DNA of 64,000 nt from an uncultured Pseudomonadota bacterium (lineage in GTDB: Bacteria; Pseudomonadota; Alphaproteobacteria; Rs-D84), in contig CACZJK010000001.1 of the NCBI GenBank assembly GCA_902781465.1, forward strand, positions 60,243 through 124,242, read 5' to 3'. Shown in pieces: positions 2,697 to 43,555 of the stretch; position 1 is the stretch's first letter; every line of letters begins with the position of its first letter. The notes under the pieces are model-generated. The model ran no database searches. It worked only from the letters and a program-made list of their open reading frames with translations, and was not told where the DNA came from. The translations under genes and the position numbers were made by a program.

Positions 2697-3095
2697 TTAA
2701 CTACATGCCTCGTTAACCTCTTCTTGGGTTGCAAGACCTTTCTCTTGTAATTTTTTTAAATTGTCGCAATCTTTGTCAGATTGTGATCGCAAATCAGAAG
2801 CCATCCCTGGTACATTACTTGTTTTACCGCCACTACCAGATGTTCCGTTTAACTTTTGTGATAATTTTACATTTGCAACAACACCTACACCCGTCGCGAC
2901 AAGTGTTGTTATACCCGCTATCTTGAATCCTTGGGTCGATTTTTCACATTGTTTTAATACTTCATATTTTTCATCACGTGTTTTTGTGTATCTGGCTATC
3001 TCAGAATCTAACATTTGATTGCGTATATCCAAATTCATATCTGCCATTGATACAATTGGAACAAACACCAAAAGAACTGTCATTATCTTTTTCAT
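2697..3095 (-). CDS. family E small exported protein (coiled-coil plus glycine-zipper segment); paralog of 18955-19767
   Basis: Signal peptide present. CEKSTQGFKIAGITTLVATGVGVVANV aligns with CMGTNKGLKIAGISTLGLTAAGVAANI in the paralog. It overlaps the upstream gene by 4 nt (ATGA). Confidence 0.55.
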   Translation of the reverse strand: MKKIMTVLLVFVPIVSMADMNLDIRNQMLDSEIARYTKTRDEKYEVLKQCEKSTQGFKIAGITTLVATGVGVVANVKLSQKLNGTSGSGGKTSNVPGMASDLRSQSDKDCDNLKKLQEKGLATQEEVNEACS

Positions 3096-3388
3096 TTTTG
3101 ACCGTCCTTTGGTTTTGTTGGTGCTTTCTTTTTTTCATTGATTTTAACAGCCTGAACTATCGCCGCCGTTCCTGTCGCCGCAACGCCAACGCTACCAATT
3201 ACAGTTGCCGCGACCCAACCTTTCTTGGTCTTTTCGCAACGCGTCATTTCAGAATCTATTTGCTGAATTTCGTTTTTCAGTGTTTGAAGAACTTCTTCTT
3301 TATATCGGACTTGTTCGGCCAATTCAGCATCATCGGCATACGCATTACATATGCATATTATTGATAAACCGAATAATATTTTTTTCAT
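3092..3388 (-). CDS. family D small exported protein (coiled-coil plus glycine-zipper TM-like segment); paralog of 19770-20144
   Basis: Signal peptide MKKILFGLSIICICNAYA. CEKTKKGWVAATVIGSVGVAATGTAAIVQAVKI aligns with CEKQKKGWIAATVIGSAGVVSTGIAAGVQGVKI in the paralog. Confidence 0.55.
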   Translation of the reverse strand: MKKILFGLSIICICNAYADDAELAEQVRYKEEVLQTLKNEIQQIDSEMTRCEKTKKGWVAATVIGSVGVAATGTAAIVQAVKINEKKKAPTKPKDGQK

Positions 3389-3424
3389 TTATTTAACCCC
3401 GTTTTTTATATTTTCTTCAAACAC

Positions 3425-3592
3425 AATTAAACCGCCATAAAGCAAGCGGTTGGAGGCTCAAAACAATTCTAGTGGAAATTGCGTGCTTATTCGATATATT
3501 CGCAACCCTCCAACCATAGTTGGAGATGTTTATCGTCATCTAGACGCCACTAAAATGGGTTTTGAGTCCCAATCAGCAAAACTCTTGCTGAT
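3425..3592 (-). ncRNA. R1 structured leader RNA, copy 5 (upstream of family D gene)
   Basis: Reverse complement contains a -10 TATAAT box, hairpin AUCAGCAA-GAGU-UUGCUGAU and the long-range helix CUCAAAAC/GUUUUGAG. Hairpin 2 is CGUC-uaga-GACG and hairpin 3 is CUCCAAC-UAU-GGUUGGAGGG. It ends with CCUCCAACCGC, an AACCGC/GCGGUU terminator with a U-tract, and then the SD and ATG at 3388. Confidence 0.7.
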
Positions 3593-3711
3593 ACCGTTTA
3601 TTATACCATATTTCCCAAATAAAAAAAGTAAAAAAATATGCGTATTTTTCCAAAGAAGTTTTTATTGAAATCGTGTAATTATTTGCTATGCTTTCCGTCA
3701 AAGGAAGCATT

Positions 3712-5244
3712 ATGGATACTAATTATACTGTTTTAGCGCGCAAATACCGCAGTCAAGACTTTGAATCTCTTATTGGCCAAGATGTTTTGGTAAAAACATT
3801 AACAACCGCAATAAATACCGGCCGTATCGCACACGCCTATATTTTCACAGGGATTCGTGGAACCGGTAAAACCAGTACTGCACGTATTTTGGCCAAGGCT
3901 TTGAATTGTTTGTCATCTGACCATGCGACATCTAAACCTTGTGGTGTTTGTGAAAATTGTCGTGCGATTGCGGCGGGTCAACATATTGACGTTATGGAAA
4001 TTGACGCGGCCTCTCATACAGGCGTTGATAATATGCGTGAAATTTTGGATGCTGCGCTTTATCGTCCAACAAATGCAAGATACAAAGTTTATATTATCGA
4101 CGAAGTCCATATGTTATCAACCAGTGCGTTCAACGCATTGCTTAAAACATTGGAAGAACCACCTGCACATGTGATATTTATTTTGGCGACAACAGAAATC
4201 AGAAAGGTTCCTGTCACTATTTTATCACGTTGCCAGCGTTTTGATTTGGCGCGCGTTCCGGTTGAAACATTAAAGAAACACTTCGCCTGGGTCGCAGAAC
4301 AGGAAAAAATCGAATTATCAGACGGTGCAAACGAATTATTGGCACGCGCTGCGGACGGCTCTGTGCGTGATGGTTTATCATTACTGGACCAGGCGATTGC
4401 ACAAACAGGCGGTCACGTTGACGAAGGTGCGGTTCTTGATATGTTAAAAAGAACAGACCGCGGAACAGTTGTGAATTTTATGAAAACTGTTTTATCTGGC
4501 GATGTAAATGCTGCACTGACGCGATTGGACGAAATCTATAACAATGGCGCAGATTTAACGATGCTGTTAAACGATATGATGGAATGGACGCATTGGGCAA
4601 CACGTATGTATCCGTCTTTGCGTTTGCAAGATGTGACATCGTCCCCTTATACCGCGGACCAGCGCGAAACAATCAAAAAGATAAATGAAACAATTTCTTT
4701 GAATACTCTTTCGCGCATATGGCAGGTTATGGTTGCTGCTGTTTCTGAATTACAGGCGTCCAGCAATCAAAAACAATGTTTTGATATGTTGATTGTTCGT
4801 TTGATGCACATTGCAGATATGCCATCAATTCCAGAATTATTAAAACAAAATTCTGAAAACGCACCTGTAAAAAAAGAAGAACCTAAAACCGAAGAAAAAC
4901 CAAAGTTCTTGGAAATAAATACTTCTGATGAATTGGCAAATGCTTTACAGGCGGCACGTGAATTATTATTGTATTCATATTATACTTCCAATCTTGAAAT
5001 CACAGAATTTGAAAACGGAAAAATAAAATACTTTGACCGCAAGGGCGATAAAGATTTTTCACAAAAACTTACATTGTGGTTAAAAGATAAAACCGGAAAA
5101 AATTGGACACTGGAAATAATAAAAGAAGCACCCCACCAACAAACATTGTCTGAACATACCAAATCTGAAATAGAAGCAGACCCAATGGTTGCAGACGCAA
5201 TGAGTTTGTTCGAAGGTGCCGAAATCGTAAATATATCTAAATAA
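3712..5244 (+). CDS. dnaX: DNA polymerase III subunit gamma/tau
   Basis: AAA+ clamp-loader motifs are present (GIRGTGKTSTARILAKALNC, DEVHMLS, SRCQRFDL). ATG at 3712 follows AAAGGAAG. Confidence 0.9.
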   Translation: MDTNYTVLARKYRSQDFESLIGQDVLVKTLTTAINTGRIAHAYIFTGIRGTGKTSTARILAKALNCLSSDHATSKPCGVCENCRAIAAGQHIDVMEIDAASHTGVDNMREILDAALYRPTNARYKVYIIDEVHMLSTSAFNALLKTLEEPPAHVIFILATTEIRKVPVTILSRCQRFDLARVPVETLKKHFAWVAEQEKIELSDGANELLARAADGSVRDGLSLLDQAIAQTGGHVDEGAVLDMLKRTDRGTVVNFMKTVLSGDVNAALTRLDEIYNNGADLTMLLNDMMEWTHWATRMYPSLRLQDVTSSPYTADQRETIKKINETISLNTLSRIWQVMVAAVSELQASSNQKQCFDMLIVRLMHIADMPSIPELLKQNSENAPVKKEEPKTEEKPKFLEINTSDELANALQAARELLLYSYYTSNLEITEFENGKIKYFDRKGDKDFSQKLTLWLKDKTGKNWTLEIIKEAPHQQTLSEHTKSEIEADPMVADAMSLFEGAEIVNISK

Positions 5245-5260
5245 CTTTTGGGGGTAAAAG

Positions 5261-5716
5261 ATGAGGGAACAATCAGGTCGTTCATTGATAGAAATTATTG
5301 GTGTCTTGGCAATCAGTGCAATTATGATTTCTGGGACTTATGCGATATATCATTCAACTAATGAAAAACAGAAAAGATTGATTGCAAGCAGTGAATTACA
5401 AGATATTGCAACAAAAACTAAAACTCTTTTGGAATATTCAGGCTATCAAAATGTGTCTGTTGATTTCTTGATTGAAAAAGGCGTATTGAAAAATGAAAAA
5501 GCCCCGGCTGGCAAAGACGGATGGTCTGTGACAAGCAGCATAGACGGCACAGAATTTTCAATCAATTTGATTGGATTAAATTTCGAAGAATGCGCATACT
5601 TTACAACCAAAAAATTAGATTGGGTGACACACATCAGTGTCAACGGACTTGATTCTGCGGATTCATCATATTGCTTAAAGACAGGCGACAACACAATTTC
5701 ATTTTTCGCACAATAA
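5261..5716 (+). CDS. type IV pilin-like / pseudopilin N-terminal domain protein
   Basis: MREQSG|RSLIEIIGVLAISAIM has G at -1, E at +5 and a hydrophobic helix, which is prepilin-like. Confidence 0.4.
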   Translation: MREQSGRSLIEIIGVLAISAIMISGTYAIYHSTNEKQKRLIASSELQDIATKTKTLLEYSGYQNVSVDFLIEKGVLKNEKAPAGKDGWSVTSSIDGTEFSINLIGLNFEECAYFTTKKLDWVTHISVNGLDSADSSYCLKTGDNTISFFAQ

Positions 5717-7193: not shown

Positions 7194-7227
7194 GTTGTAT
7201 AAAATAACAGTTTCAGATAAAATAATT

Positions 7228-7410
7228 TTGTCAGCAAGAGTTTTGCTGATGAGGCTTGAGAACCTGTGATAAAGTGGCGTCTAGAAAAAGCGGACGTAAA
7301 ATGCTCCAACCTATGGTTGGAGGGCTGCGAATATATGGAATAAGCAGCGCAATTTCCACTTTGAATTGTTCTCAACCTCCAACCGCCTTTCTTTTAAGTG
7401 CGGTTTTAAT
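7228..7410 (+). ncRNA. R1 structured leader RNA, copy 1 (upstream of family C gene)
   Basis: A -10 box GATAAAAT sits at 7216-7223. Hairpin UCAGCAA-GAGU-UUGCUGA is followed by long-range helix UUGAGAAC/GUUCUCAA. Hairpin 2 is CGUC..GACG, then CUCCAACC-UAU-GGUUGGAGGG, hairpin CUGCG..CGCAG, CCUCCAACCGCC and a terminator. Confidence 0.7.
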
Positions 7411-8211
7411 TTTTTTGCCGTTCTGGCTGTTCTTGGAACGACGCAAGGTTCTCCCCTTGTTGGGGGAGTGCGGCGCAGCCGGAGGGGGGTTAAGACAAAA
7501 GGAACAAAATGTGTTGTGTGTTACGGTGCAACATTTAATCAATATTGGTATATCGAAGATAACGCACCAATACAAACATCTTGCACCACCGGTGGCGATA
7601 TAATATTACCAACCCCACCAATCAAATATGGATATGATTTTATCGGTTGGGAGAAATTACCATATGTTCCAATTGAGTATTTGGAAAGCACCGGAACACA
7701 GTATATTGATACGGGGCTAACTGTGAATGATGGTGATATAAGTGCAACCGCTGTTTTTATGCCGACCAGTTTTGTTGTAAACGATACTTATGCATGTATT
7801 TTTGGTATTAATGGAAACTTTCAGGCTGCCTACACTGGTACTGGTACAGCACACATAGGCAACACTTCGTCCTTACAACAATTTTTTTATCTTTATAAAA
7901 AAGCAACTGTTAAGGGTGTTTTATCGTCAAGTATGCCTCAAATATATTATGTTGATAATGTTTCTACTGGTTTGTCGAGAACTTTTAATACAGATAAAAG
8001 GTTAATGTTATTAGATGCGGAACCTCATAGGTTTGCCGCACGTGGTAGATTGTATAGTTTCATTGCTTCTAGAAATAATAAAGTAATTATGGATCTTATC
8101 CCCGTTCTTGATTCCAACGGCACACCATGTATGTATGACGTGGTGGAAAAGAAATTTTATTACAACGCCGGTACCGGTCAATTCATCGCTGGTCCAGTTA
8201 TTGGGGAATAG
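7366..8211 (+). CDS. family C exported-protein paralog with GW (Listeria-Bacteroides-type) repeat; 5' end disrupted (pseudogene or internal GTG start at about 7471)
   Basis: From CVVCYGATFNQYWY onward it is collinear with 24067-24855 (LPTPPIKYGYDFIGWE motif). The paralog's signal peptide is replaced by read-through of the R1 leader plus a GC-rich palindromic repeat, with no ATG in frame near the homologous start. Confidence 0.4.
   Translation: MFSTSNRLSFKCGFNFFAVLAVLGTTQGSPLVGGVRRSRRGVKTKGTKCVVCYGATFNQYWYIEDNAPIQTSCTTGGDIILPTPPIKYGYDFIGWEKLPYVPIEYLESTGTQYIDTGLTVNDGDISATAVFMPTSFVVNDTYACIFGINGNFQAAYTGTGTAHIGNTSSLQQFFYLYKKATVKGVLSSSMPQIYYVDNVSTGLSRTFNTDKRLMLLDAEPHRFAARGRLYSFIASRNNKVIMDLIPVLDSNGTPCMYDVVEKKFYYNAGTGQFIAGPVIGE
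7447..7491 (+). repeat. GC-rich palindromic repeat (GGTTCTCCCC..GGGGGAGTGCGGCGCAGCCGGAGGGGGG); second copy at 23267-23310
   Basis: Near-identical 45-bp GC-rich block in a roughly 35% GC genome, also present at 23267-23310. It contains a CTCCCC-N-GGGGGAG dyad. Confidence 0.7.
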
Positions 8212-8400
8212 CCCAGGTTCCGCCCCCATGGGGAGGGGAACCCGCAGGGCTTGTTTCGCCATAGCCTTGGCGACGGCGAATGGAGGGGGTAATCCGGTAC
8301 ATTCAAAATAACGAAATACTGGAACAAAAACCAACCCCCCTCCTGCTACGCGAACTCCCCCACAGGGGGAGAACCTTCACTCTGGAATAAGGAGATAAAT
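8212..8400 (+). repeat. GC-rich quasi-palindromic spacer between the family C and B genes (CCCCCATGGGG, CTCCCCCACAGGGGGAG)
   Basis: Homologous to 23874-24066. It contains several C(4-6)N(2-4)G(4-6) hairpin motifs. Confidence 0.6.
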
Positions 8401-8871
8401 ATGAAAAAAATTTTGTTATTATCTTTATTACTTATACAACCGGTATATGCGGAATATATAACAAATGATATTGTTTCCGGTTGTGATGGTGGGTATTTCT
8501 ATCGTGCACAGTTTGTAAAAAAACAAATAATATGTCCGAATGGTTATTATTTACCCGCAAATGCTTTATCTTGTGAATTATGCCCAAATGGTTATGCATG
8601 TAATGGTGGGACTTACAGTTTTAATGAAAACAATTTTTCTGGTGCAGAATACACAACCCCAATAACAAACAATATGAACAATATATGTGCATCAAATGCA
8701 CCACAATTATTACGTGCGGTATTTCGTCCACATACGATAACGATAAACTGGGACGACGGGACGAATATTACCCAAAATACCTGTCAATATGGTGGTGCGA
8801 TAACATTACCGCCAACGCCGGTCAGGCCGGGTTATGTGTTCGGCGGATGGCGGATTAAGAACCCAGATTAG
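8401..8871 (+). CDS. family B exported protein with C-terminal GW (Listeria-Bacteroides-type) repeat; near-identical paralog at 23403-23873
   Basis: Signal peptide MKKILLLSLLLIQPVYA. It is Cys-rich and carries ITLPPTPVRPGYVFGGWR. It is identical to the paralog across most of its length. Confidence 0.6.
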   Translation: MKKILLLSLLLIQPVYAEYITNDIVSGCDGGYFYRAQFVKKQIICPNGYYLPANALSCELCPNGYACNGGTYSFNENNFSGAEYTTPITNNMNNICASNAPQLLRAVFRPHTITINWDDGTNITQNTCQYGGAITLPPTPVRPGYVFGGWRIKNPD

Positions 8872-8950
8872 TTCCGCCCCCATGGGGAGGAGAATCAATA
8901 AAAAAAAGCACCCGTAATTGCGGGTGCTTTAACAATTATTTTTTTTAAGT

Positions 8951-11350
8951 TTATAATTGTGCCTTGACTTCTTGGATTTCATAGCATTCGACACGATCGC
9001 CTTCTTTCAGATCGTTATATTTGTCGAAACTCATACCAAATTCTACGCCAACGCCAACTTCGGATACTTCGTTCTTTTCGCGACGCAATTCGCCAATCTT
9101 GCCATCGTATATAACAACATTGTTGCGCAACAAACGAACCATTGCAGATTTCTTTATTACACCTTCACTTACGCGGCATCCGGCAACTTTAATACCCTTG
9201 CCCACAGTGAACAATGCGATAACATCTGCATATCCGATAAAGTTTTCACGTTTTTCAGGCGCCAATTTACCAGACAATATTTCTTTGATTTCATCTGTAA
9301 TACGGTAAACAACACTGTGATATCTGATATCTACGCCGTTATTGCGTGCCATATCACGAACCGCACTGTCCGCACGAACATTAAACGCGATTATAACCGC
9401 ACCTGATGCTGTCGCCAATCTGATATCGCCTTCGGTAATTTGACCAACACCCGCAGACAATAATTCTACACCGGCCTTTTCAGAATTAAATCCACGCAAC
9501 ATATCTGAAATCGCCTCCACAGAACCTTGCACATCTGCGCGCAAAATAACTGGCAATGTCAATTTCTTGGTTTCATCACGTTTTGCAAACAATTCTTCCA
9601 AAGAAGAACGTTTAACTGCGTTTGCTTTATCTTTTGCCTTTTGTGCACGATATGCAGCAACTTCACGTGTTTGCGCTTCATTTTCCATAACGTGTAATTC
9701 GTCACCCGCAGATGGAACAGATTCCAAACCTAATACCATTGCTGGCTGACCCGGTTTAACAGATTTAACACGGACACCATTTGAATTTATCAAACCACGA
9801 ACGCGTCCAAATGTTTCACCAACTACGAACACATCACCAACAGATAAAGTTCCCTGGCGCATCAAAATTGTTGCAACCGCACCAAGCCCTTTTTCCATTT
9901 TTGCCTCTACTACATATGCAGAAGCCAACATATCTGGGTCGGCCTTTAAATCCATAATTTCGGCCTGTAAAAGAATCGCTTCTTCTAATTTATCCAGGCC
10001 CATTTTTGTTTTCGCAGAAATTTCAACACATTGAACATCACCACCCATTTCTTCAACCTGAACTTCCTGTTGCAACAGGTCTGTTTTTACACGATACGGG
10101 TCGGCTTCTGGTAAATCACATTTGTTGATTGCGACAATAAAAGGAGCCTTGGCCGCACGAATATGATTTATCGCTTCGATTGTTTGTGGCATAATTGAAT
10201 CATTGGCCGCAACAACCAAAACAACGATATCTGCGATTTGCGCACCGCGTGCACGCATTGCTGTAAAAGTTTCATGTCCCGGCGTATCAAGGAAAGTTAT
10301 TATCGCACCAGATTTTGTTTTAACTTCATACGAAGAAATATGCTGTGTGATTCCACCTGCTTCGCCTGCAACTACATTTGCATTACGGAACGCGTCCAAA
10401 AGTGAAGTTTTACCATGGTCAACGTGTCCCACAACTGTCACAACTGGATAACGCGGTTGCAATCTGTCCGCGTGTGGTTCTTCTTCCAAAATATTAGCAT
10501 AAGGTTTAACATCAACACGTTTTACTGTTGCACCAAATTCAGTTGCTATCAATTCGGCCGTATCCGCATCAATAGATTGATTTTGTGAAGCCATCATGCC
10601 CATTTCCATCAATTTTTTGATAACATTGCCGACTTTTTCAGCCATAGCAGCCGCCAAATCTTTCACAGTAATCGTATCACCCAATGTGACAATGTGTTCC
10701 ACCTTTTGTGGCGCAGTAAATACAGCTCGTGCTTTTTCACGGAAACGTTTTAATGAAGCCTCGCTGCGACGGCGATTTGCACCACGCAAACCGATTTCGT
10801 CATCGTCGTCATCTTCGCCACCACCGATAACAATATCGTGGATAGAAATCTTGCCACCTTTTTTGAAATCTTTTTTAAAACGATTTTGTTTTTGACCACG
10901 AACATCATCAGCATCTTCATCACGACGATTGTTATGGTTATTAAAGGCGACATTATTCTTTTTATTTTCATGAGTGTTTTCGCGCACTGGAACGATCGCA
11001 GGTTCTTCAACAACTGCTTCCGCTTCGCTTTCACGTTGCGCCAATTGTTCTTTGACTGCTTCGTATTCACGATTTTCGCGTTCTATTTCCGCTTCGCGTG
11101 CACGACGCGCTGCTTCTTCTTCGGCCTCGCGTTTTCTGCGTTCTTCATCACGCGCCTTTGCTGCCTCTAATACGGCACGTAATTTTTCATCAGCCGCACT
11201 GCGCACATTTTCAACCTTTTTAGGTTCTTCACGTAATTCATTATTACCCGGTGCAACAATGCGACGACGGCGTTCTACAAAGACAGCGTCGCCTTTTTTA
11301 CTTTGCACTGCACCAACTGTCACAGATTTTCCAAGTGTTAATGTCGCCAT
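8951..11350 (-). CDS. infB: translation initiation factor IF-2
   Basis: GTPase G-domain motifs are present ([21 protein letters not shown]) with a charged N-terminal region. Length is 799 aa. Confidence 0.95.
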
Positions 11351-11386
11351 ATTTTAACCTTTGGTTTTATTATTACCTTTATTTTA

Positions 11387-12931
11387 TTATTCAGCGTCCG
11401 TTTCTGGAACGATACCGTATGCCAATTCACGTGCCTTCATAACAATACGTTCTGCAAGACGTTCTGACATATTATCTTCGCCCAAGATTTCAACCAATTC
11501 GTCAGATGCAAGGTCTGCCAAATCAGACAAAGATTTAATATCGTTTTCACCCAATTTCATAATTATTGGACGTTTAATGAAATCGAATTTCAACAAATCA
11601 TCGCTCATACCCATTTTGTGGCCATTATCAAAATAATCTTGTTCAATTTTGGCCAAGTATGCTTTTGCACGATTTTGTAATTCTGTTGCCAATTCTGTAT
11701 TGAATCCTTCGATAGATTCCAATTCAGACTGTTCAACATACGCAATTTCTTCGATTGTTCTGAAACCTTCTGTAATCAATAATTGAGCAATAGTTTCATC
11801 AACATCCAAAGCACTTGTAAACAATTCTGTTTTTTCTTTGAATTCTTTTGCACGGCGTTCTGCTTCTTCGGCTTCACTCATAACATCAATATTCCAACCA
11901 GTCAATTGAGAAGCAAGGCGAACATTTTGACCACGACGACCAATTGCCAAAGATTGTTGGTCTTCTGTCACAACGACGGCCGCAGTATGTGTATCTTCGT
12001 CAACGATGATTTTTGCAACTTTCGCAGGTTGCATTGCATTAACGATAAATACTGCAGGGTCTTCTGAATACAAAATAACATCAATCTTTTCACCATGACA
12101 TTCGTTTATCACAGGTTGAATACGTGTTCCCTTGATACCAACAGTCATACCAACCGCATCAATAGATGGATCTTGGGTTTCAACTGCGATTTTAGCGTGT
12201 GAGCCAGGCGCACGAGATACAGATTTAATTTTAATAATACCTTCATAAATTTCTGGAACTTCTTGAGTGAACAATTTTTCCATAAAACTTGGGTGGGTTC
12301 TGGTCAAGAAAATCTGTGGGCCTGTATTAGAACGAACAACGTCCATAATCAAAGCACGAACACGATCACCAACCGCCAAGCGTTCACCTGGGATTAATTC
12401 TGTATTTTTGATATAACCTTCGGCTTTGCCATTGATATCAACAAAAACATTACCAAATTCAATACGTTTAACAACACCATTAACAATATCGCCTATATTA
12501 TCTTTGAATTCTTCGTATTGATTGCCTTTTTCTGCATCACGCACACGTGCGGTCATAATTTGACGCGCTGTTTGGAAAGCCATACGACCAAATTCTGGTT
12601 CTGGCAACATATCTTCGACCACATCACCAACCTGAGGATTTGCAGCATATTTTTTTGCCTTTTCCACAGTCAACATAGTGTTTGCGTCGTATTCTTCGCC
12701 CTTGGATTCAGGGGATTCGATAACTTCGAACAGACGTTTTACATGTATTGCACCATTTTTACGATCGATTTGTGCAGCAATGTTAAATTCTTCACCATAT
12801 TTATGTTTTGCAATTTTTGCGATGGCCGCTTCCAAAGATTCGATAACTGTTTCGCGATCTATCATCTTTTCTTGGGCCAAAGAATCAATCGCTAATAACA
12901 AATCTTGACGTGGCATAGATTCAAAAGACAT
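11387..12931 (-). CDS. nusA: transcription termination/antitermination factor NusA
   Basis: S1 and KH domains plus a C-terminal acidic region. It is adjacent to infB. Confidence 0.9.
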   Translation of the reverse strand: MSFESMPRQDLLLAIDSLAQEKMIDRETVIESLEAAIAKIAKHKYGEEFNIAAQIDRKNGAIHVKRLFEVIESPESKGEEYDANTMLTVEKAKKYAANPQVGDVVEDMLPEPEFGRMAFQTARQIMTARVRDAEKGNQYEEFKDNIGDIVNGVVKRIEFGNVFVDINGKAEGYIKNTELIPGERLAVGDRVRALIMDVVRSNTGPQIFLTRTHPSFMEKLFTQEVPEIYEGIIKIKSVSRAPGSHAKIAVETQDPSIDAVGMTVGIKGTRIQPVINECHGEKIDVILYSEDPAVFIVNAMQPAKVAKIIVDEDTHTAAVVVTEDQQSLAIGRRGQNVRLASQLTGWNIDVMSEAEEAERRAKEFKEKTELFTSALDVDETIAQLLITEGFRTIEEIAYVEQSELESIEGFNTELATELQNRAKAYLAKIEQDYFDNGHKMGMSDDLLKFDFIKRPIIMKLGENDIKSLSDLADLASDELVEILGEDNMSERLAERIVMKARELAYGIVPETDAE

Positions 12932-13142
12932 TTATTTCTCCTTATGATGTTGTTTTTATTGCCTTTTTATTGAAAGAGCGGGGTTTTTATAACCCCGCCC
13001 TTAAAACTTATTTTAAGAACACGATATATTATTGTGTCCGAATCGTTAAAAATCAAGTAAAAAATGAAGTATTTTTAATATAAAACAAATATATATTATT
13101 GTCTTTGTTGCTTGACGGTATGACTTTTGGGCTTTATACTTT

Positions 13143-14210
13143 ATGATTATGAAGATTATAAACCGATATTTTAGGCGTCAACTGCTTGGCATATTTGTCA
13201 TGCTGTTGTTGATTTTGACAGGTTTGTCATGGATGATGCAGATTATGTCTATGATGAAATTCCTGCTTAGTTATGGTATTAAATTTTCCAGTTTTGTTTA
13301 TTTAACTTCGTTGATGATACCTTTTATCATATCAATAATCATTCCTTTTGTCACATTTATCGCGACAATATTTATCTATAACAAAATGATTACCGAAAAC
13401 GAAGTGACGGTTATGGCGGCATCTGGTCTGTCTCCATGGCAAATTGCAAAACCTGCGATAAGACTGGCCGCATGGATAACATTGGCGCATTTGATTTTGA
13501 ATATATGGATTGTTCCTTTAAGTCAAAGGATGTTTTACAGCACCCAATGGAATTTACGTTATGGTTTGGCACATTTGAAATTACAAGAATCTGCTTTTAC
13601 TAAACTGGCAAATGGACTGGTTGTTTATGTTGATAATGTTTCTGGAAAGGATTTGAACCAAGTTATGTTATCTGATATGCGCACAGAAAATAATCAATTA
13701 TTGGTTTTTGCAAAGCGTGGCAAACTGGTTTCAACTGTCCATGGGCTTTCTATTGTGACCGATAATGGTTCGTTGCAAATCCAGGGACGCAATGGCTTTA
13801 CCACCGGCACATTTGATAATATGGACATGGATTTGAATTTGGTTGAAAATGACAAAGATGCATCTTTCCGTGTTCGCAGAATACCAAGTTGGACTTTATT
13901 AAAAACAGTATTTTCCCAAGATGACACACGTCAACATAAATTGACATTGGTTGAAATTTGCACACGATTTATAAATCCATTTATGAATATTATTTTGGCA
14001 ATAGTTTGTACACTTGCATTGTTAAAAACATCTTTATTGCGTCGTCGTGCCAGTTTTGCCCCAGCAATGGCGGTATTAGGTATGGCGGCAGTAATGGCGC
14101 TTTATATGTCTATGTCTAATATGGTGACCAGTTTGACTGATGTTGGATTGTTGGCACTTGTTGTATTCGGGTTATTGTTCGCATTAATTGGTTTATTGTT
14201 AAAAAAATGA
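13143..14210 (+). CDS. lptF: LPS export ABC permease, LptF/LptG (YjgP/YjgQ) family
   Basis: Six-TM permease, 355 aa, located directly upstream of lptD. Confidence 0.6.
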   Translation: MIMKIINRYFRRQLLGIFVMLLLILTGLSWMMQIMSMMKFLLSYGIKFSSFVYLTSLMIPFIISIIIPFVTFIATIFIYNKMITENEVTVMAASGLSPWQIAKPAIRLAAWITLAHLILNIWIVPLSQRMFYSTQWNLRYGLAHLKLQESAFTKLANGLVVYVDNVSGKDLNQVMLSDMRTENNQLLVFAKRGKLVSTVHGLSIVTDNGSLQIQGRNGFTTGTFDNMDMDLNLVENDKDASFRVRRIPSWTLLKTVFSQDDTRQHKLTLVEICTRFINPFMNIILAIVCTLALLKTSLLRRRASFAPAMAVLGMAAVMALYMSMSNMVTSLTDVGLLALVVFGLLFALIGLLLKK

Positions 14211-16240
14211 AAAGCATAAATTTATCTTTACTGATGTGTTTATTTACAACAAACGCTTTTTGTTTGGGTGTGAATACTGACGAACCAAAAACAATTAAAT
14301 CAGATAAAGTTTATTACAACGTAAAATCCGAAGAAATAAAAACGTCGGGCAATACAGAAATGACAAATGCCTCGGGCCAGCGCATAAGATTAAATGAATT
14401 AAGTCTGTCAAAAAATCAATCAAGCGTTCACGCAAGCGATATTGAAATCTGGTTGGGTAATCATGTTTATGTCAAAGCAGACAAAGTCACAAAAAACGGC
14501 GATGAAACCATTGCTAAAAACGCAGACTTTACCGCATGTGAAGGCTGTGATTCTTATGGAAACGCCTGGGATATACACGCACATACAATAGTTCATGATG
14601 CAATTGAAAAGATGATTTATTTTCATAATGCTTCATTTTGGGTTTATGATAATAATATTCCGGTTTTGTGGTTGCCTTATTACGAAATGCCAGACCCAAG
14701 TGTAAAATACAAAACAGGCTTTTTGTCGCCAAGTTTTAATTCAACAAACGGTATGGGAACCCAGATAAATATACCGGTATATATAAATATATCTGATCAT
14801 CATGATTTAACAACAACTTTTTCATACCTTACAAACGAAAACCCGTTATTTCAGGCCGAACACAGATTGAATTTTCGCCGTTCTGAATTCAGAACCAAGG
14901 GTTCTTTTACTCATAACGAAGCCGGCAAAAATCGTTGGCATTTATATAATGACGATATAATTGAAATGGGCGACAATGCACGCACAACCATATATATTGC
15001 CAGAACATCTGATAAAACCTATTTGCAAAAATATGGTTTTTACGATTATCAACCATACCTTGATTCTGGGGCCAAGGTAGAATTATTCGGGCAAACCAGT
15101 TATGTTGTGGCCGACGCCCATATATTCCAAGAATTACGTACTGCAAGTGGCAATCAACAAGAAGTTTCTGGAAACATATTACCAAACGTTCGTGGTGTAT
15201 ATCAAACGGACCCATTTTGGCACGAAACTTATCTCAGTTTCTCTGGCGACGTATTGGCAGTATCCAGTGAAAAATCAGACAGTCAACGCGCCATTGGCGA
15301 AGCACGCATAATTTCCCCATGGACATTGTGGGGTGGGAATCGTTTAACGCTTAGTGTGGCATCACGATATGATATTTATAATTTTGATAAAACCGCAGTT
15401 TATAATGAAAGCGGCCAAATAAATGATTCTTATACCGGTGTCAAATCAAGATTTTTACCAAGTGGTTATGTTGAATGGGGGCTTCCTCTTTACAGTGTTA
15501 AAAACGATTGGACTTATATAATCGAACCACGTGCACGTTTAACAGTTATGCAACGCACAGACACAAAGTCCGTATTTGCAGCAGACAATGATTCTGCCGG
15601 TCGCTTTTTGTCTGATACAACATTGTTCTCTAATAACAGATATGCGGGATACGATGTATGGGAAAACGGTAATTTCATTGATTATGGCGCACGTTGGGCT
15701 GCATTTAATACCAATAATAATATCGAAGTGTTTTTGGGACAAACTTACGATTTTGTTTCTGACAAGGAAGACTTTTATGACAACGGTTTCAGAAATGGTT
15801 TTTCTGACTATGTTGGACGTATTGCGTATTCACGAAAATATTTTGAAATCTCGTCACGTTTTCGTAACGACAGATACACGTACAAATTAAATCATACCGA
15901 AAATTCTATTTATATCGGCCATGGAAATAACTATATATCTTTGGGACACATTTGGGATACACAACCTATTGATATTTATTCTGGCGGGGATAAAGATACT
16001 CACGAAATTGCAACTGGTGCCGGCCTTCAACTGACTAAAAGAATAAATGTTAAAAGTTCTGTAATATTTAATGCATACGAACATATTATACAAAGACATT
16101 CTGGCGGGGTATTCTATGAACATCCATGTTATTATTTTTCTTTGGAATACCAACGCGATAACGCAACACACGAAGACTATGTTGGAAACACCACTTTCCA
16201 ATTCAGATTTGGTATGAGTATTGACGGCAAACATTATTAA
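14207..16240 (+). CDS. lptD: LPS-assembly outer membrane protein LptD
   Basis: 677 aa with a signal peptide, an OstA-like N-terminal domain and a large beta-barrel. It follows lptF and precedes surA. Confidence 0.7.
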   Translation: MKSINLSLLMCLFTTNAFCLGVNTDEPKTIKSDKVYYNVKSEEIKTSGNTEMTNASGQRIRLNELSLSKNQSSVHASDIEIWLGNHVYVKADKVTKNGDETIAKNADFTACEGCDSYGNAWDIHAHTIVHDAIEKMIYFHNASFWVYDNNIPVLWLPYYEMPDPSVKYKTGFLSPSFNSTNGMGTQINIPVYINISDHHDLTTTFSYLTNENPLFQAEHRLNFRRSEFRTKGSFTHNEAGKNRWHLYNDDIIEMGDNARTTIYIARTSDKTYLQKYGFYDYQPYLDSGAKVELFGQTSYVVADAHIFQELRTASGNQQEVSGNILPNVRGVYQTDPFWHETYLSFSGDVLAVSSEKSDSQRAIGEARIISPWTLWGGNRLTLSVASRYDIYNFDKTAVYNESGQINDSYTGVKSRFLPSGYVEWGLPLYSVKNDWTYIIEPRARLTVMQRTDTKSVFAADNDSAGRFLSDTTLFSNNRYAGYDVWENGNFIDYGARWAAFNTNNNIEVFLGQTYDFVSDKEDFYDNGFRNGFSDYVGRIAYSRKYFEISSRFRNDRYTYKLNHTENSIYIGHGNNYISLGHIWDTQPIDIYSGGDKDTHEIATGAGLQLTKRINVKSSVIFNAYEHIIQRHSGGVFYEHPCYYFSLEYQRDNATHEDYVGNTTFQFRFGMSIDGKHY

Positions 16241-16254
16241 AGCGGGGGAATTAG

Positions 16255-17076
16255 ATGAAAAAATTATTAGGTATAGTTTTTCTTTTGTTAAATACAGTCA
16301 ATGCAAATGCAGCCACTGTGGTAGGTTCTGTTAATGGTAAACCTGTCACAGACACAGATATAACAGCACGCACAGAATTAATGGCAAAGCAAGGCAAGGT
16401 ATCAAAAACAAATCGCAAACAGGCTTTCCAAAACATAGTCGATGATTATATCAAACTGGATTATGCTGCGAATTATAATGTAAAACCAACAGATAAAGAC
16501 GCAGATAAAGAATTAAAGCAAATGAACCTGGGCGAAATGAGTGATACAGTGCATGCTATGGCGCGTTTGGCAATGCGTGCAAATATTGCATGGAATGTTA
16601 TGATGGCGCGCACCATTGTCCCACACATAGAAGTTTCACAATCTGATATTGATGAAGAAAAGGCATCAATTGCACGCGAACATGGATTACCTGTTGAAAT
16701 AACTATGTTGCGCGTTATCGATATGCCAAATGATATATATCAAAAATTGAGCAAACCTAAAAATTGTGATGAAGCAGAAAAAATGATTGAAAACTTTGGT
16801 GGGTATCCACAAAAGATTACCGCTCAACACTACGAACTGGCCCCAGAAGTTCGTGAACGAATTGCAAACCTGCCTTTGCTGACTTGGTCTAAAAATGAAA
16901 ACAACTCAATTTTCTTGGTATGCAGTGAAAAGAAAACCAAGGAATATAAAAATCTGGATGAAATAATTAAACAAAACGCAATTTATAAAAAAGCCTCTTT
17001 TAACGGCGACCAACAATTAAAACAATTGCGCCGCAAGGCTGTGATTATTGTGAACGACGAACGATATAAATTATGA
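16255..17076 (+). CDS. surA: SurA N-terminal-domain-like periplasmic chaperone (no obvious PPIase domain)
   Basis: Signal peptide, a VNGKPVTDTDI motif and its position between lptD and rlmN. Confidence 0.45.
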   Translation: MKKLLGIVFLLLNTVNANAATVVGSVNGKPVTDTDITARTELMAKQGKVSKTNRKQAFQNIVDDYIKLDYAANYNVKPTDKDADKELKQMNLGEMSDTVHAMARLAMRANIAWNVMMARTIVPHIEVSQSDIDEEKASIAREHGLPVEITMLRVIDMPNDIYQKLSKPKNCDEAEKMIENFGGYPQKITAQHYELAPEVRERIANLPLLTWSKNENNSIFLVCSEKKTKEYKNLDEIIKQNAIYKKASFNGDQQLKQLRRKAVIIVNDERYKL

Positions 17077-18954: not shown

Positions 18955-19767
18955 TTATTCATCCCAACAAACATCTTCCCCATTCAAACATCTTGCTTCT
19001 GCGTCGCCAAGGCACGCACAAACACCTGTTTCTGAATTATAATGATAAGCCCTTGGGTTAGCACATTTTTGTACCAATTCTTTACATTTATCTTCTGTAT
19101 TATTTTCACCAGACAATGTACACGCTGCCAGAACAGGTACATTTATTTCAACAACCTGCCCCGTTCCAGATGTTTGTTCTTTAGGTATTGAATTGACATT
19201 AAATGTTCCGTTGAAACTTTCACCTTCGCACAAATTTTGAAAATCATCGGACTCTGTCGCAACGGTACTAGTTTTTTCTACACATGATTTACCATCTTCT
19301 GCTACTTCAAAATTGCCACTGCAACTTAATATCTTACAATCGCCATTTTCATCTTTTTCAACCGTCAATATTTTATTAGTATTTGCACCTTCGGCCGTTA
19401 ATTGGGTTTTACATTCAGCCAATAATGCCGCTTGTTCTGCCGCTGCTGCTTCTCTTTGGGCTTTAAGTGCCTGTTTATCAGTTATTGATTTATTAAGCGA
19501 TTCTATTTTTTCATCTTTCTTTTCTATTGTTTTTTCATTATCTTTTATAGTTTTTGCTTCATATATATTTGCCGCAACACCGGCCGCAGTTAAACCCAAA
19601 GTTGAAATTCCTGCGATTTTAAGGCCTTTGTTTGTTCCCATACACTTTTCCAACTGTTCCATTTTTCGCTGTTTTTCACGCACCAATTGTGTAAAACGTG
19701 CCGACGCACCAAACACCATATTCGGAACCAATGCCAACAATAATGGTAAAAGGAAATATTTTTTCAT
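18955..19767 (-). CDS. family E exported protein (coiled-coil, glycine zipper, Cys-rich C-terminal domain)
   Basis: Paralog of 2697-3095 with a signal peptide and many Cys residues in the C-terminal half. Confidence 0.55.
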   Translation of the reverse strand: MKKYFLLPLLLALVPNMVFGASARFTQLVREKQRKMEQLEKCMGTNKGLKIAGISTLGLTAAGVAANIYEAKTIKDNEKTIEKKDEKIESLNKSITDKQALKAQREAAAAEQAALLAECKTQLTAEGANTNKILTVEKDENGDCKILSCSGNFEVAEDGKSCVEKTSTVATESDDFQNLCEGESFNGTFNVNSIPKEQTSGTGQVVEINVPVLAACTLSGENNTEDKCKELVQKCANPRAYHYNSETGVCACLGDAEARCLNGEDVCWDE

Positions 19768-19769
19768 TT

Positions 19770-20144
19770 TTAATTACCCAATTCAGTACTTTGTCTGTTT
19801 AATTCTTTTATTTCTTTGTTCTTTTCAGCAATAGTATCTTTTTGATCTTTGATTTTTACACCCTGAACACCTGCGGCAATCCCGGTTGATACAACACCCG
19901 CAGAACCAATAACAGTTGCCGCAATCCAGCCTTTCTTTTGCTTTTCGCATTTGGCGATTTCTTCATCTAAAATCCGAATATCATTTTCCAAAGTGGCAAT
20001 TGCTGCTTCGTCATCTAATTCTTCTATCGAAGTTCCTTGTTGTTGTGCAAATTTAGCTGCTGTATTATTGTTAACTTTTACCGCAGCATCTGCATTAAAT
20101 ACAGAAATCAGCATAATAAGTGATGATATAAATAATTTTTTCAC
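19770..20144 (-). CDS. family D small exported protein (glycine zipper)
   Basis: Paralog of 3092-3388. Confidence 0.55.
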   Translation of the reverse strand: MKKLFISSLIMLISVFNADAAVKVNNNTAAKFAQQQGTSIEELDDEAAIATLENDIRILDEEIAKCEKQKKGWIAATVIGSAGVVSTGIAAGVQGVKIKDQKDTIAEKNKEIKELNRQSTELGN

Positions 20145-23042: not shown

Positions 23043-23266
23043 ATATTTTCTCCATTTTTGTTTGTTTATTTATGCGAAGAAAAATTATTCGTTTTTGCGC
23101 TCTTGTGAACAAAACGCAAGAAAGAACAATTCTATCTTCGCGACCTGAGTTTGATTATAAAATATAAATAAATATTTTCAACAAATTTTAAGAACGCCAA
23201 AAGTAAATTATTTATTCTTTTTTATTCACCACCCGCCATCCGCCTTTGCTATATTGTCGCAGACCA

Positions 23267-23310
23267 GGTTCTCCCCCCGTGGGGGAGTGCGGCGCAGCCG
23301 GAGGGGGGTA
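23267..23310 (+). repeat. GC-rich palindromic repeat (second copy of the 7447-7491 repeat)
   Basis: GGTTCTCCCCCCGTGGGGGAGTGCGGCGCAGCCGGAGGGGGG. An additional palindrome TCTCCCCCACATTGGGGGAGA lies at 23380-23400. Confidence 0.7.
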
Positions 23311-23402
23311 TTCTGGTTTATTTGTTATACCGAACGACTGGGACAATTGTTTTTTCAACCCCCTCACCACTTCGTGGTCCTCTCCCCCACATTGGGGGAG
23401 AA

Positions 23403-23873
23403 CTAATTTGGGTTCTTAATCCGCCATCCGCCAAATACATATCCAGGGCGAACTGGTGTTGGGGGCAGGGTTATCGCACCACCATATTGACAGGTATTTT
23501 GGGTAATATTCGTCCCGTCGTCCCAGTTTATCGTTATCGTATGTGGACGAAATACCGCACGTAAAACCACAGGTGCATTTGATGCACATATGTTGTTCAT
23601 ATTGTTTGTTATGTTTGTTGTGTATTCTGCACCAGAAAAATTGTTTTCATTAAAACTGTAAGTCCCACCATTACATACATAACCATTTGGGCATAATTCA
23701 CAAGACAAAGCATTGGCGGGTAAATAATAACCGGATAAACATGTTTCAGTATGCGGAACAAATTTTGCACGATATGCACCAGAATTATTACATCCGGCTA
23801 TAATATCATTGGTGATATATTCCGCATATACCGGTTGTATAAATAATAAAGATAATAACAAAATTTTTTTCAT
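23403..23873 (-). CDS. family B exported protein with GW repeat (paralog of 8401-8871)
   Basis: Near-identical to the copy at 8401-8871, in inverted orientation. Confidence 0.6.
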   Translation of the reverse strand: MKKILLLSLLFIQPVYAEYITNDIIAGCNNSGAYRAKFVPHTETCLSGYYLPANALSCELCPNGYVCNGGTYSFNENNFSGAEYTTNITNNMNNICASNAPVVLRAVFRPHTITINWDDGTNITQNTCQYGGAITLPPTPVRPGYVFGGWRIKNPN

Positions 23874-24066
23874 ATATATCTCCTTATTCCAGAGGGCCTA
23901 ATTCCCCTCCATGGGAGGGGTGGATTGCGTCAGCAAGACAGGGAGGGGGCCGATTATATTTATATTAAATATTTTTATTTGACCCCTCCCCGCCGTTCCG
24001 GCCCTCCCCTCCGGCGGAGGGGAATCCGCAGGATGCGCCAGAGCGACGGCGCATGGCGAATTTTAT
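23874..24066 (-). repeat. GC-rich quasi-palindromic spacer between the family B and C genes (CCCCTCCATGGGAGGGG, CCCCTCCGGCGGAGGGG)
   Basis: Homologous to 8212-8400. Confidence 0.6.
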
Positions 24067-24855: not shown

Positions 24856-24874
24856 AAAATTCCCCCTTTGCCAA

Positions 24875-25062
24875 AAAAAGACCGTCCAAAGGGCGGTCAG
24901 GGAGGTGGTAAAGATTAACAAAACGAAATCTATCTCCCCGACCATAATATCAGGGACACATGCGATGCAAAAAGCACCGAAAAAACATCAGATACGATGC
25001 TTTCGCATCGGTTTTGTTAAAGGCTTACCACAGCCCTGAACCCAATTCCCATTGGATTCAAA
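24875..25062 (-). ncRNA. R2 structured leader RNA, copy b (upstream of family C gene)
   Basis: -10 GATAGAAT in reverse complement at 25068-25076. Hairpins are CCAAU-GGGA-AUUGG and CGAUGC-GAAA-GCAUCG. An alternative terminator GCAUCG..CGGUGC plus U5 is possible. Second terminator is GACCG..CGGUC plus U7, about 20 nt before the ATG. Homologous to 43556-43762. Confidence 0.55.
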
Positions 25063-25133
25063 TACTATTCTATCATAACAACACAAAAAAACAACACCTG
25101 TTTTCACAGGTGCTGCATTGAATTATAAAAAAT

Positions 25134-29963: not shown

Positions 29964-30019
29964 ACCGGTCAACACCGGTTTTTTTATTGCAATAAATAAT
30001 TATTTTCTGATAAAATAAT

Positions 30020-30210
30020 TTTGTCGGCAAGTATTTTGTCGGTGGGGTGTAGCTACCTCTGAAATAAATCGGCGTCTGGGAAAAAGCGGACGTAAAATGC
30101 TCCAACTGATAAAAATTTGGTTGGAGGGTTGCAAAATATACTGAATATGCACACAATTTCCGATTTAAATTGTAGCTAACCTCCAACCGCCCGATTTTCT
30201 GGCGGTTTTG
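30020..30210 (+). ncRNA. R1 structured leader RNA, copy 2 (upstream of family A gene)
   Basis: Promoter TTGCAA-N17-ATAAAAT. Long-range helix GGGGU-UAGCUA/UAGCUA-ACCUC. Hairpin 2 is CGUC..GACG, then CUCCAAC..GGUUGGAGGG, CCUCCAACCGCC and terminator CCGCCCGAUUUUCUGGCGG plus U4. Confidence 0.7.
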
Positions 30211-30236
30211 TTTGTAAAAAAACAAAAGAGGATACA

Positions 30237-30713
30237 ATGACAAAAATTATAATGATAATCGCCGGATTAATAACAACAATTCCAACATATGCAACAACAA
30301 TGTGCGCCGCAAATGATACCGTTGCCATCGTATTAGATCCAAGTATTGAAAAAATTGATATGGGTGCAGACGCTACAAGCCAAACTTGGTGGGCACAATT
30401 ACCCTTCGGACGCGTCAGCGGAACCGCAGCACTTATAAATAAAAACTGCACACAAGGTCAAGCCACATCAGAATTAACCGACATTGATAATAATGGTGAT
30501 ACAAAACGTATTGTGGGCGGTGAAAAATACGGCAAAGTTTGTTGGTGTAAATTGATACATCCTGCCATGTCTAAATGGGTTTGCAATGTTTATTCAGGCT
30601 ATTATAACGATAATTTTGGTTTTGATAGAGGTTCTTTAGCACATTGTGTTGGAATGTGTGCGACACTATTCGGAAGTATAAACTCCGGTCTTTTTGGTTC
30701 GATTGAAAACTAA
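30237..30713 (+). CDS. family A small secreted Cys-rich protein (TYATTMCA family)
   Basis: Signal peptide. Conserved with the 36822 and 55109 ORFs (PTYATTMCA.NDTV..VLDPSI, WWAQ.PFGRVSGTAA, VGGEKYG.VCWCK). Confidence 0.6.
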   Translation: MTKIIMIIAGLITTIPTYATTMCAANDTVAIVLDPSIEKIDMGADATSQTWWAQLPFGRVSGTAALINKNCTQGQATSELTDIDNNGDTKRIVGGEKYGKVCWCKLIHPAMSKWVCNVYSGYYNDNFGFDRGSLAHCVGMCATLFGSINSGLFGSIEN

Positions 30714-36556: not shown

Positions 36557-36583
36557 AACACCGCCGATTGGCGGTTTTTTTAT
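36557..36583 (+). terminator. rho-independent terminator
   Basis: ACACCGCCGAUUGGCGG followed by U7. Confidence 0.6.
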
Positions 36584-36623
36584 TTTTCTCTTTTTTTAAT
36601 AAATAATGTTTGCTAGAATATAT

Positions 36624-36806: not shown

Positions 36807-36821
36807 AAATGGAGGAAACAA

Positions 36822-43516: not shown

Positions 43517-43555
43517 AGAAATACTTGCACGCCTATTTATTTTTGATAGAATGGT

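Follow-up and report, generated by a model that had tools for sequence, protein, structure and literature searches.

Paired secreted-protein cassettes in an uncultured Rs-D84 alphaproteobacterium as members of a dispersed operon family with a candidate switch-type leader RNA and triplex-type repeats

Introduction

When two closely similar gene cassettes face one another across housekeeping DNA, each bordered by GC-rich palindromes, do they record an inverted duplication in which the palindromes took part, or is their pairing incidental to something larger? This question is raised by a 64,000-nucleotide (nt) stretch of DNA from an uncultured alphaproteobacterium of the order Rs-D84 (GenBank assembly GCA_902781465.1, contig CACZJK010000001.1, positions 60,243 to 124,242), which we analyzed at its full length and refer to as the window. 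It carries a two-gene secreted-protein unit on the forward strand, C1-B1 (7.5-8.9 kb), and a second on the reverse strand, C2-B2 (24.9-23.4 kb). An earlier sequence-only reading described the two as an inverted duplication and suggested that the palindromes either mediate duplication or inversion or act as stabilizers of RNA. We conclude that both cassettes belong to an operon family present in many dispersed copies, carried by a gut alphaproteobacterium of reduced genome near Candidatus Enterousia, that the inverted duplication itself is ordinary, and that their opposed orientation is incidental.

Results

The two cassettes belong to a larger operon family

An inverted-repeat search linked the cassettes through four pairs of arms, at 8542-8893/23381-23732 (91% over 352 nt), 7509-7716/24610-24817 (88% over 208 nt), 8380-8487/23787-23894 (92% over 108 nt), and 8096-8196/24088-24188 (74% over 101 nt). 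The cassettes are thus paralogous and inverted, as first described, with arms 74-92% alike, and the roughly 14.5 kb between them is filled with housekeeping DNA. The window itself holds only two copies each of C and B by tblastn. To treat these as a unique pair, or as a one-off inverted duplication, would nevertheless be mistaken, because sister scaffolds from the same metagenome (L121 and L122) carry four further C-B pairs, amid other housekeeping genes and in either orientation: 10001-11401 and 19387-18127 on L121, and 3989-5360 and 10001-11425 on L122. At L121 19387-18127 the second gene is not a B homologue and belongs to the same small exported-protein family as the window gene at 30237-30713. 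A third C paralogue (P0062) lies on a sister scaffold of 278,731 nt and a third B paralogue (P0159) on a contig of 310,225 nt. A homologue search at E <= 0.001 returned at least 1504 relatives of C, almost all of them proteins of about 250 amino acids (aa) from uncultured gut Alphaproteobacteria; the B family has only 40 homologues among 5.8 billion proteins.

The translation initiation factor IF-2 encoded in the window is 93% identical to that of Candidatus Enterousia merdequi. Candidatus Enterousia belongs to the order Rs-D84, a group of uncultured gut alphaproteobacteria with genomes of less than 1 Mb that probably depend on other cells (PMC12306168). Among related genomes the cassettes come and go. 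In a related species (L247, 80-87% nucleotide identity), pnp follows gpsA after 185 bp, and the 1.95 kb that hold the leader, C2, B2, and GC-rich elements in the window (25131-23186) are replaced by 33 bp. Two closer relatives (L249 and L251, with IF-2 97% identical) encode unrelated signal-peptide proteins between infB and ompH, and neither the leader described below nor any C-run/G-run hairpin was found in that slot. Since one copy is missing in L247 and other genes occupy the slot in L249 and L251, both cassette sites are, by these comparisons, variable slots of the flexible genome, the infB-ompH slot being a hot spot. As a separate observation, the slot between the convergent infB and ompH genes (the L249 and L251 equivalents of window 12400-14800) contains different secreted-protein genes in each close relative.

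It could still be that recombination at the inverted cassettes or at their hairpins flips the 14.5-kb segment, or once made the second copy. The arms, 88-92% alike over up to 352 nt, are long enough for RecA-dependent exchange, a B2-like patch in the B1 gene of a sister assembly would fit gene conversion between the copies, and repeats of the TM/BoxC class, to which we compare the palindromes below, are reported to mark rearranged loci (PMC4666352). The inversion isomers that such a process predicts did not appear, however: the orientation is the same in the window and in a spanning scaffold from the European Nucleotide Archive (ENA), and a contig from another sample (L003) keeps the junction between infB and B1. 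No recombinase was seen among the open reading frame (ORF) translations or the Pfam hits listed for the region, and members of the cassette family lie scattered over unrelated sites in either orientation, one of them free of any GC-rich element. We therefore consider a flipping or duplicating segment quite unlikely. Of the proposal that the palindromes mediate duplication or inversion, a role in instability survives as plausible given the published link between TM/BoxC elements and rearrangements, but the assemblies compared gave no sign of an invertible segment.

A structured leader RNA precedes the C genes

A repeat search found that the approximately 200 nt upstream of C1 recur at 29977-30200, 36580-36810, 54870-55080, and, on the reverse strand, 3439-3591. 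Aligned, these sequences share a -10-like TATAAT followed by the hairpin P1, by a pair of long-range helices that come before an inner hairpin, and by a triad of segments CTCCAACC...GGTTGGAGGG...CCTCCAACC. An intrinsic terminator comes last, and its 5' arm (AACCGCC) extends over part of the third triad member, CCTCCAACC. The leader of cassette 1 occupies 7212-7423 on the forward strand (covariance model R2, 176.6 bits, E = 9e-49), with the -10-like GATAAAAT at 7216-7223, P1 at 7230-7250, the long-range helices at 7257-7263/7368-7374 and 7270-7276/7357-7363, the switch segments CTCCAACC at 7304-7311, GGTTGGAGGG at 7315-7324, and CCTCCAACC at 7376-7384, and the terminator at 7381-7417.

Model R2 finds seven leader copies in the window. 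One stands before each C gene, the copy upstream of C2 (24862-25078, reverse strand) being a variant (36.7 bits, E = 1e-8), and the five that lie outside the cassettes each precede a small exported-protein gene. These five are at 3412-3611 on the reverse strand, before a 98-aa protein at 3388-3092, and on the forward strand at 30005-30225, 36608-36816, and 54898-55107, before exported-protein paralogues at 30237-30713, 36822-37292, and from 55109 onward, and at 43541-43777, a second GGTCGGGGAG variant before a 105-aa ORF at 43751-44068. The model also matches L019, a named Ca. Enterousia metagenome-assembled genome (MAG), as well as each C gene of L121 and L122, and a scan with the pattern GGTTGGAGGG-N35-65-AACCTCCAACCGC located the leader in at least 120 metagenome loci. 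The genes downstream of it mostly encode signal-peptide proteins of several families, together with small helix-turn-helix (HTH) proteins. Because the same leader precedes many other exported-protein genes, the cassettes appear to be part of one co-regulated surface-protein regulon.

RNAalifold recovered only P1 and the helices forced upon it, and we therefore tested the long-range helices directly. Among 115 distinct sequences, the 7 nt before AACCTCC had a perfect upstream partner in 97%, through 35 sequence variants, and the next long-range helix occurred in 90 sequence variants. Across the alignment (A6), 83.9% of cells were paired versus 72.4% in shuffles, and both sides had changed in 219 cells versus 79; none of 500 shuffles reached either observed value, and slid controls were all far lower. 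In the two variant leaders (24862-25078 and 43541-43777) the triad reads TCCCTGA / GGTCGGGGAG / CTCCC(T/C)GACC, with CTCCCTGACC as the third segment at 24862-25078. These variants thus change all three switch segments together, keeping both alternative pairings.

A covarying structured domain thus leads straight into an intrinsic terminator, and an alternative helix competes with that terminator. The leader has in this respect the arrangement of a switch for transcription attenuation, which would be a riboswitch or an attenuator that depends on a factor. In such a switch, formation of the multi-helix domain with CTCCAACC paired to GGTTGGAG would let the terminator form, while pairing of GGTTGGAGG with CCTCCAACC would sequester the terminator arm and permit read-through, CTCCAACC being the upstream partner of the internal GGTTGGAGG. 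The leader resembles known riboswitches and other terminator-antiterminator leaders in its promoter, its large covarying domain, the opposition of a terminator to an alternative helix, and its presence before many genes of related function. It differs from known riboswitches in lacking an Rfam family and in a regulon made up of exported and small HTH proteins rather than a metabolic pathway. A comparison with 4227 Rfam families, run at the gathering threshold for the window and at E <= 10 for one leader, gave no match at gathering score or at a credible E-value.

The GC-rich elements have the sequence design of a variant intrastrand triplex motif

The GC-rich hairpins quoted in the sequence-only reading are all present where it placed them. 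They form a genuine family of repeats, clustered at the borders of the cassettes and in the C-B spacers. The background against which they had been judged unusual, a genome of roughly 35% GC, was set too low, the window measuring about 38%. Runs of 30 nt with at least about 73% GC that are made of C-run/G-run hairpins occur in the window at the two cassettes only. Read in register, the unit is the 45-nt block already singled out, consisting of GTTCTCCCCC, a loop, GGGGGAG, a hairpin-forming linker of 12-16 nt, and GAGGGGG. Its core pattern, GTTCTCCCC-N3-7-GGGGGAG, occurs four times, at 7448-7468 (+), 8355-8374 (-), 23268-23287 (+), and 23382-23403 (-), with none expected from shuffled sequence.

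The underlying design is a three-block rule, in which a pyrimidine block is followed on the same strand by its Watson-Crick complementary purine block and then by the mirror image of that purine block. Six of the eight elements in the window fit this rule perfectly with blocks of 6-7 nt, loop 1 spanning 3-6 nt and loop 2 spanning 12-21 nt and forming a hairpin of its own. A strict three-block search returned two matches in the window and none in each of 30 shuffles. A covariance model (R1) built from cross-phylum hits and excluding the window copies recovers those copies at 35-41 bits; its matches fall on both strands, all outside real coding sequences, and even at E <= 1 it finds nothing in the window beyond the two cassettes.

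Elements occur singly or, more usually, as inverted pairs of 140-165 bp. The single element lies at 7446-7490 (+), between the leader terminator and the start of C1 (CTCCCC / TTGTTG / GGGGAG / TGCGGCGCAGCCG / GAGGGG; R1 34.9 bits), and an identical copy holds the same relative position in L122 at 3923-3967. In the C1-B1 spacer (8212-8378), an imperfect forward unit at about 8214-8290 is paired with a perfect reverse unit at 8334-8376 (R1 36.9 bits), and the whole spacer folds as one long hairpin (-71.3 kcal/mol, z = -3.6). Downstream of B2, an inverted pair of perfect elements occupies 23262-23405, with units at 23357-23405 (-) and 23266-23309 (+) that score 37.0 and 41.4 bits with R1 (fold of 23262-23404, -64.2 kcal/mol, z = -4.1). 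In the C2-B2 spacer (23896-24062), two triplex-type elements, one reading CCCCTCC/GGAGGGG/GGGGAGG and the other CCCTCC/GGAGGG/GGGAGG, likewise form an inverted pair, with a weak R1 match at 23982-24028 and the most stable fold (-83.2 kcal/mol, z = -5.6). Downstream of B1 (8872-8930), we read a truncated GC hairpin at 8872-8895, followed by a bidirectional intrinsic terminator that a terminator scan places at 8905-8930 and that is common to the B1 side and infB.

Two known identities were rejected for these elements. None has a T-tract, so they are not intrinsic terminators, and their ends (GTTCTCC/GGAGAAC), as judged by eye, do not fit the GTTRRRY/RYYYAAC of integron attC sites. The closest known class is that of the G/C-rich intrastrand triplex motifs, which form triplexes in vitro, are always intergenic, show no strand bias, are often paired on opposite strands, and occupy loci that, compared with controls, show more rearrangement and a larger number of small deletions (PMC4666352). 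One member of the class, TM_ECO, is CCCTCNCCC-N3-6-GGGNGAGGG-N3-GGGNGAGGG, identical to BoxC (Holder et al. 2015, PMC4666352) and, as cited in that paper, also to the PIT elements of Hoyne et al. 2000. The window elements share with TM_ECO/BoxC the three-block design, the intergenic location in both orientations, the opposite-strand pairs, the multiplicity of copies, and the variable loci. They differ in that their blocks are 6-7 nt rather than 9 nt and of another sequence (CTCCCCC/GGGGGAG/GAGGGGG), that loop 2 is a covarying mini-hairpin of 12-21 nt where TM_ECO has 3 nt (TTA or CCG), and that this variant, present in an Rs-D84 alphaproteobacterium, recurs almost unchanged across many phyla. 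Judged by sequence design, the window elements would be a variant of the intrastrand triplex motif of the BoxC/TM kind and not canonical TM_ECO. The published ITxF search admitted loops of 1-6 nt only (PMC4666352), and the hairpin-linked form may for this reason be uncatalogued.

Scanning 185,579 species genomes with 23 specified bases gave more than 115 loci among the matches listed, and the taxa represented among these include Rhizobiaceae, Anaerolineales, Bacteroidaceae, Prevotellaceae, Actinomycetota, the candidate phyla radiation (CPR), Acidobacteriota, Planctomycetota, and Ca. Enterousia; part of the cross-phylum matches may be chance occurrences in GC-rich genomes. The linker, which the search left unspecified, is conserved as A-U-G-stem-loop-stem-C-A with many compensatory stem variants (alignment A5), and 107 of 121 linkers fold, compared with 53% of shuffled linkers. 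R1 finds further copies in L121, L122, L019, L061, and L107, and in relatives the elements stand at unrelated intergenic sites, after rRNA and other genes and in a five-copy array. Origin from a phage or plasmid was rejected, with only 3 matches in 2.9 million viral contigs. Rfam models run at E <= 1 against seven loci with the GC motif, and a literature search by motif sequence string, returned nothing relevant.

Three side observations concern these wider copies. The array just mentioned, in a Ca. Enterousia MAG (L061, 5536-6022), has five tandem triplex-type units at a spacing of about 110 nt that fill an intergenic region of roughly 500 bp. In Chloroflexota, CPR, and Bacteroidales, the 45-nt motif is accompanied by a second triplex-type unit, CCCCTTCC-TAA-CCTTCCCCC-loop-GGGGGAAGG, and the flanking companion element reads CCCCTCC-TAA-CCTCCCC-loop-GGGGAGG. 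The 45-nt hairpin-linked motif (L006-L120) often lies 8-60 nt upstream of a start codon.

REP elements in E. coli operons stabilize upstream mRNA or set expression ratios, and the GC-rich elements might similarly act mainly in RNA, protecting mRNA from 3' exonucleases or attenuating read-through and thereby setting the C:B ratio; a pyrimidine-type RNA triplex could also form in one orientation. Elements are present in the C-B spacer of four of the six cassettes and at the 3' end of B, their folds are very stable (z from -3.6 to -5.6), and the copies just upstream of B are C-rich, the only type able to form RNA triplexes (PMC4666352). Such a role sits poorly with the occurrence of both orientations, with relatives that carry the same element in tandem arrays and at other, unrelated sites between genes, with the lack of T-tracts, and with the cassette that has no elements, and we hold it to be unlikely, although less so than a flipping segment. 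That cassette (L122 10001-11425) also means that the GC-rich elements are not needed for a cassette to exist.

REP and BIME sequences, REPINs, and Rickettsia palindromic elements (RPEs) are further relatives by type, being short GC-rich extragenic palindromes that occur singly, paired, or arrayed, and the roles proposed for REP-type elements include mRNA stabilization and genome plasticity (PMC3733652). The window elements lack the GTAG or CGTC tag, and a mirror-image third block is not a REP feature. RPEs insert in frame, whereas the element here is upstream of coding sequence in the assembly with an intact C1 start. If the cassette were the cargo of a nonautonomous element resembling a miniature inverted-repeat transposable element or a REPIN, with GC pairs as its ends and a transposase acting in trans, one could point to the 140-165-bp composites with terminal inverted repeats GGTTCTCCCCC...GGGGGAGAACC, to the presence or absence of the cassette between related genomes, and to the multi-copy element family. 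The GC pairs, however, do not bracket the cassette: of the two ends of the 1.95-kb insertion, only one has a pair nearby. Neither a target-site duplication nor, in the regions and loci examined, a transposase or RAYT gene was seen, and, read against PMC3733652, no GTAG or CGTC tag flanks the hairpins. We regard this account as very unlikely.

Two assemblies differ within cassette 1

A public ENA assembly (ERZ28613905, STEW19-1 scaffold_21; L001, L002, and L004) matches the window at 100% identity for tens of kilobases. All 16 mismatches and one indel fall inside the repeated cassette, with more than 60 kb elsewhere 100% identical. The indel consists of 41 nt present in L004 (11020-11060) and absent from the window at 7509, 19 nt downstream of the GC-rich element, and it supplies the ATG and the signal peptide, MKKFLLSIITLFICVVCYG, of C1. 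In the window, C1 is therefore a coding region at 7510-8211 (+) with neither start codon nor export signal, as delimited by alignment with L004, BLASTP against C2, and tblastn. The start at 7366 implied by the earlier ORF call has to be given up, as that position lies inside the leader RNA and the frame reads through the terminator and the GC-rich element. The missing start is either a real deletion or an assembly error. The B1 gene of this assembly carries, in addition, a patch (window 8658-8712) identical to B2, the product of either gene conversion or an assembly chimera.

Both the 41-nt gap and the patch might be artefacts of metagenome assembly between paralogous repeats, without biological meaning. 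Both assemblies were built from short-read metagenomes, the differences are confined to the repeated cassette within otherwise identical DNA, and the end of the L003 contig, from another sample, falls within B1. Yet the gap removes a nonrepeated stretch, in sequence only 88% similar to the paralogue, and small deletions beside TM elements are what PMC4666352 reports. We give the artefact explanation serious weight, holding it to be only somewhat less probable than a biological origin.

The C and B proteins have signal peptides and half an InlB B-repeat

C2 (24067-24855, -) has a signal peptide, half an InlB B-repeat, and a predicted LamG/ConA-like jelly roll with a hypervariable middle. B1 (8401-8871, +) combines a signal peptide with a Cys-rich repeat and with the initial half of an InlB B-repeat (PF09479, E = 3e-8; alignment A4), and B2 (23403-23873, -) matches PF09479 as well. 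B1 and B2 share 87% of their residues, so that "nearly identical" was a little generous. The suggestion that both families carry the repeat known from Listeria and Bacteroides proteins, to be checked against PF09479 (Flg_new), holds for B above the cut-off of 27 bits (B1 33.9, B2 33.8 bits); C also carries an InlB-B/Flg_new-type module but stays below the cut-off (C1 20.3, C2 23.4 bits). Both families cover only the first 40 or so of the 65 profile positions. The idea of a split domain, with complementary half-repeats in B and C, is ruled out, since B and C match the same half, the first, of the Flg_new profile. No NCBIfam model matches C or B.

C1 and C2 share an N-terminal block, as noted earlier, but their last 50 or so residues are common too, and only the middle has diverged (44% identity). 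Across the C family (alignment A2), an invariant framework of IEYLESTGTQYIDTG ... IPVLD.NG.PCMYD.V..KFYYN.GTG.FIAGP surrounds a hypervariable middle of about 110 residues, a pattern suggestive of a binding protein under diversification. An AlphaFold2 model of C2 has a pLDDT of 85.8, exceeding 90 across residues ~70-260, and its top Foldseek matches in the PDB are the LamG/LNS domains of agrin, neurexin, and laminin (E of about 2e-5; target-normalized TM-score 0.5-0.57, root-mean-square deviation 5-7 A), although Pfam gives no LamG match. These results point to C as a secreted or surface LamG/ConA-like binding protein.

The Cys-rich unit of B has weak matches to ephrin-receptor-like repeats and DUF7631, and the structure model of B (pLDDT 65.5) is too weak for use. 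The C-terminal half-repeat is nearly invariant in protein sequence while its DNA is only 73-93% identical between paralogues, which indicates purifying selection and not homogenization; gene conversion was accordingly rejected as the main cause of the near-identical C-terminus. B is a small, lineage-restricted, Cys-rich secreted protein. The likeness to InlB B-repeat (Flg_new) proteins and LamG/ConA-like adhesins lies in the PF09479 match of B above the cut-off, the modest superposition of the modeled C core on LamG/LNS domains, and the signal peptides of both. The differences from InlB B-repeat proteins are the coverage of about 40 of 65 profile positions in either protein, the subthreshold score of C, and the homologue count of B, only 40.

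Neighboring features

Three features lie near the cassettes or the leaders. Between two leader-C cassettes of L121 stands a locus (15177-16548) made up of a reverse-transcriptase gene (RVT_1, 342 aa) with a neighbor of 108 aa, and it could be a diversity-generating retroelement. In the window at 2697-3388 and 18955-20144, small signal-peptide proteins have a coiled coil followed by a Gly/Ala/Val-rich hydrophobic stretch (e.g., ...ATVIGS.GV...G.AA.VQ.VKI...), and these form paralogous pairs adjoining leader-driven genes. The 3' end of tRNA-Val(TAC) and the bases downstream of it are repeated 168 nt further on (20243-20360/20473-20528; 56 nt, 80% identity), which resembles a scar left when an element integrated at the tRNA gene.

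Discussion

We think it probable that a dispersed, leader-controlled operon family with triplex-type passenger repeats explains the locus as a whole. Each operon runs from a promoter through a leader RNA of about 200 nt to the C gene, a GC-rich spacer, and the B gene. The GC-rich repeats are most likely passengers that accumulate in, and are copied with, dispensable operons, and they probably predispose these loci to small deletions, to gene conversion, and to being gained or lost. The signal of such instability is that two otherwise identical assemblies differ only inside cassette 1, by the 41-nt indel and the B2-like patch.

Several points weigh against this explanation. The invariance of GGTTGGAGGG and CCTCCAACC among the metagenome matches was imposed by our search pattern, so the variant leaders are the only independent test of the switch helices, and the predicted switch role is argued from sequence and covariation. 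Triplex formation is read from the design of the blocks, and the same blocks would let inverted pairs fold as plain long hairpins. All GC-rich elements of the window lie inside the two cassettes, with none in 66 kb of syntenic DNA from relatives, and a function specific to the cassettes could account for this. The link between GC-rich elements and instability is correlative, in the literature as well as here, and the differences between assemblies could be short-read chimeras between paralogues. L121 and L122, sister scaffolds of the same metagenome, may come from a genome other than that of the window, and the functions suggested for C and B draw on fold similarity of modest strength (TM-score of about 0.5).

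A bolder proposal is that the leader represents a novel class of riboswitch or is recognized by a new RNA-binding antiterminator, and switches on a large secreted and surface regulon of Rs-D84, and that the hairpin-linked triplex motif is an uncatalogued, functionally constrained DNA or RNA element. We offer this combination tentatively, as a possibility that we think rather more apt to prove wrong than right. If it is true, the leader would place the proteins that contact a host or partner under the control of a single signal in genomes of less than 1 Mb.

For these reasons, the points of interest at this locus are the leader RNA and the cross-phylum repeat variant rather than the duplication. 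The leader is a well-supported, unannotated structured RNA, known from hundreds of examples, and a ready candidate for riboswitch or antiterminator discovery. The palindromes extend the little-studied intrastrand triplex repeats to a hairpin-linked form that published search rules probably missed, and the near identity of this form across distant phyla sharpens the question of what role such repeats play. For the organism itself, the keeping of many secreted-protein operons, all of them behind a single elaborate leader RNA, in so small a genome points to molecules of contact with a host or partner.

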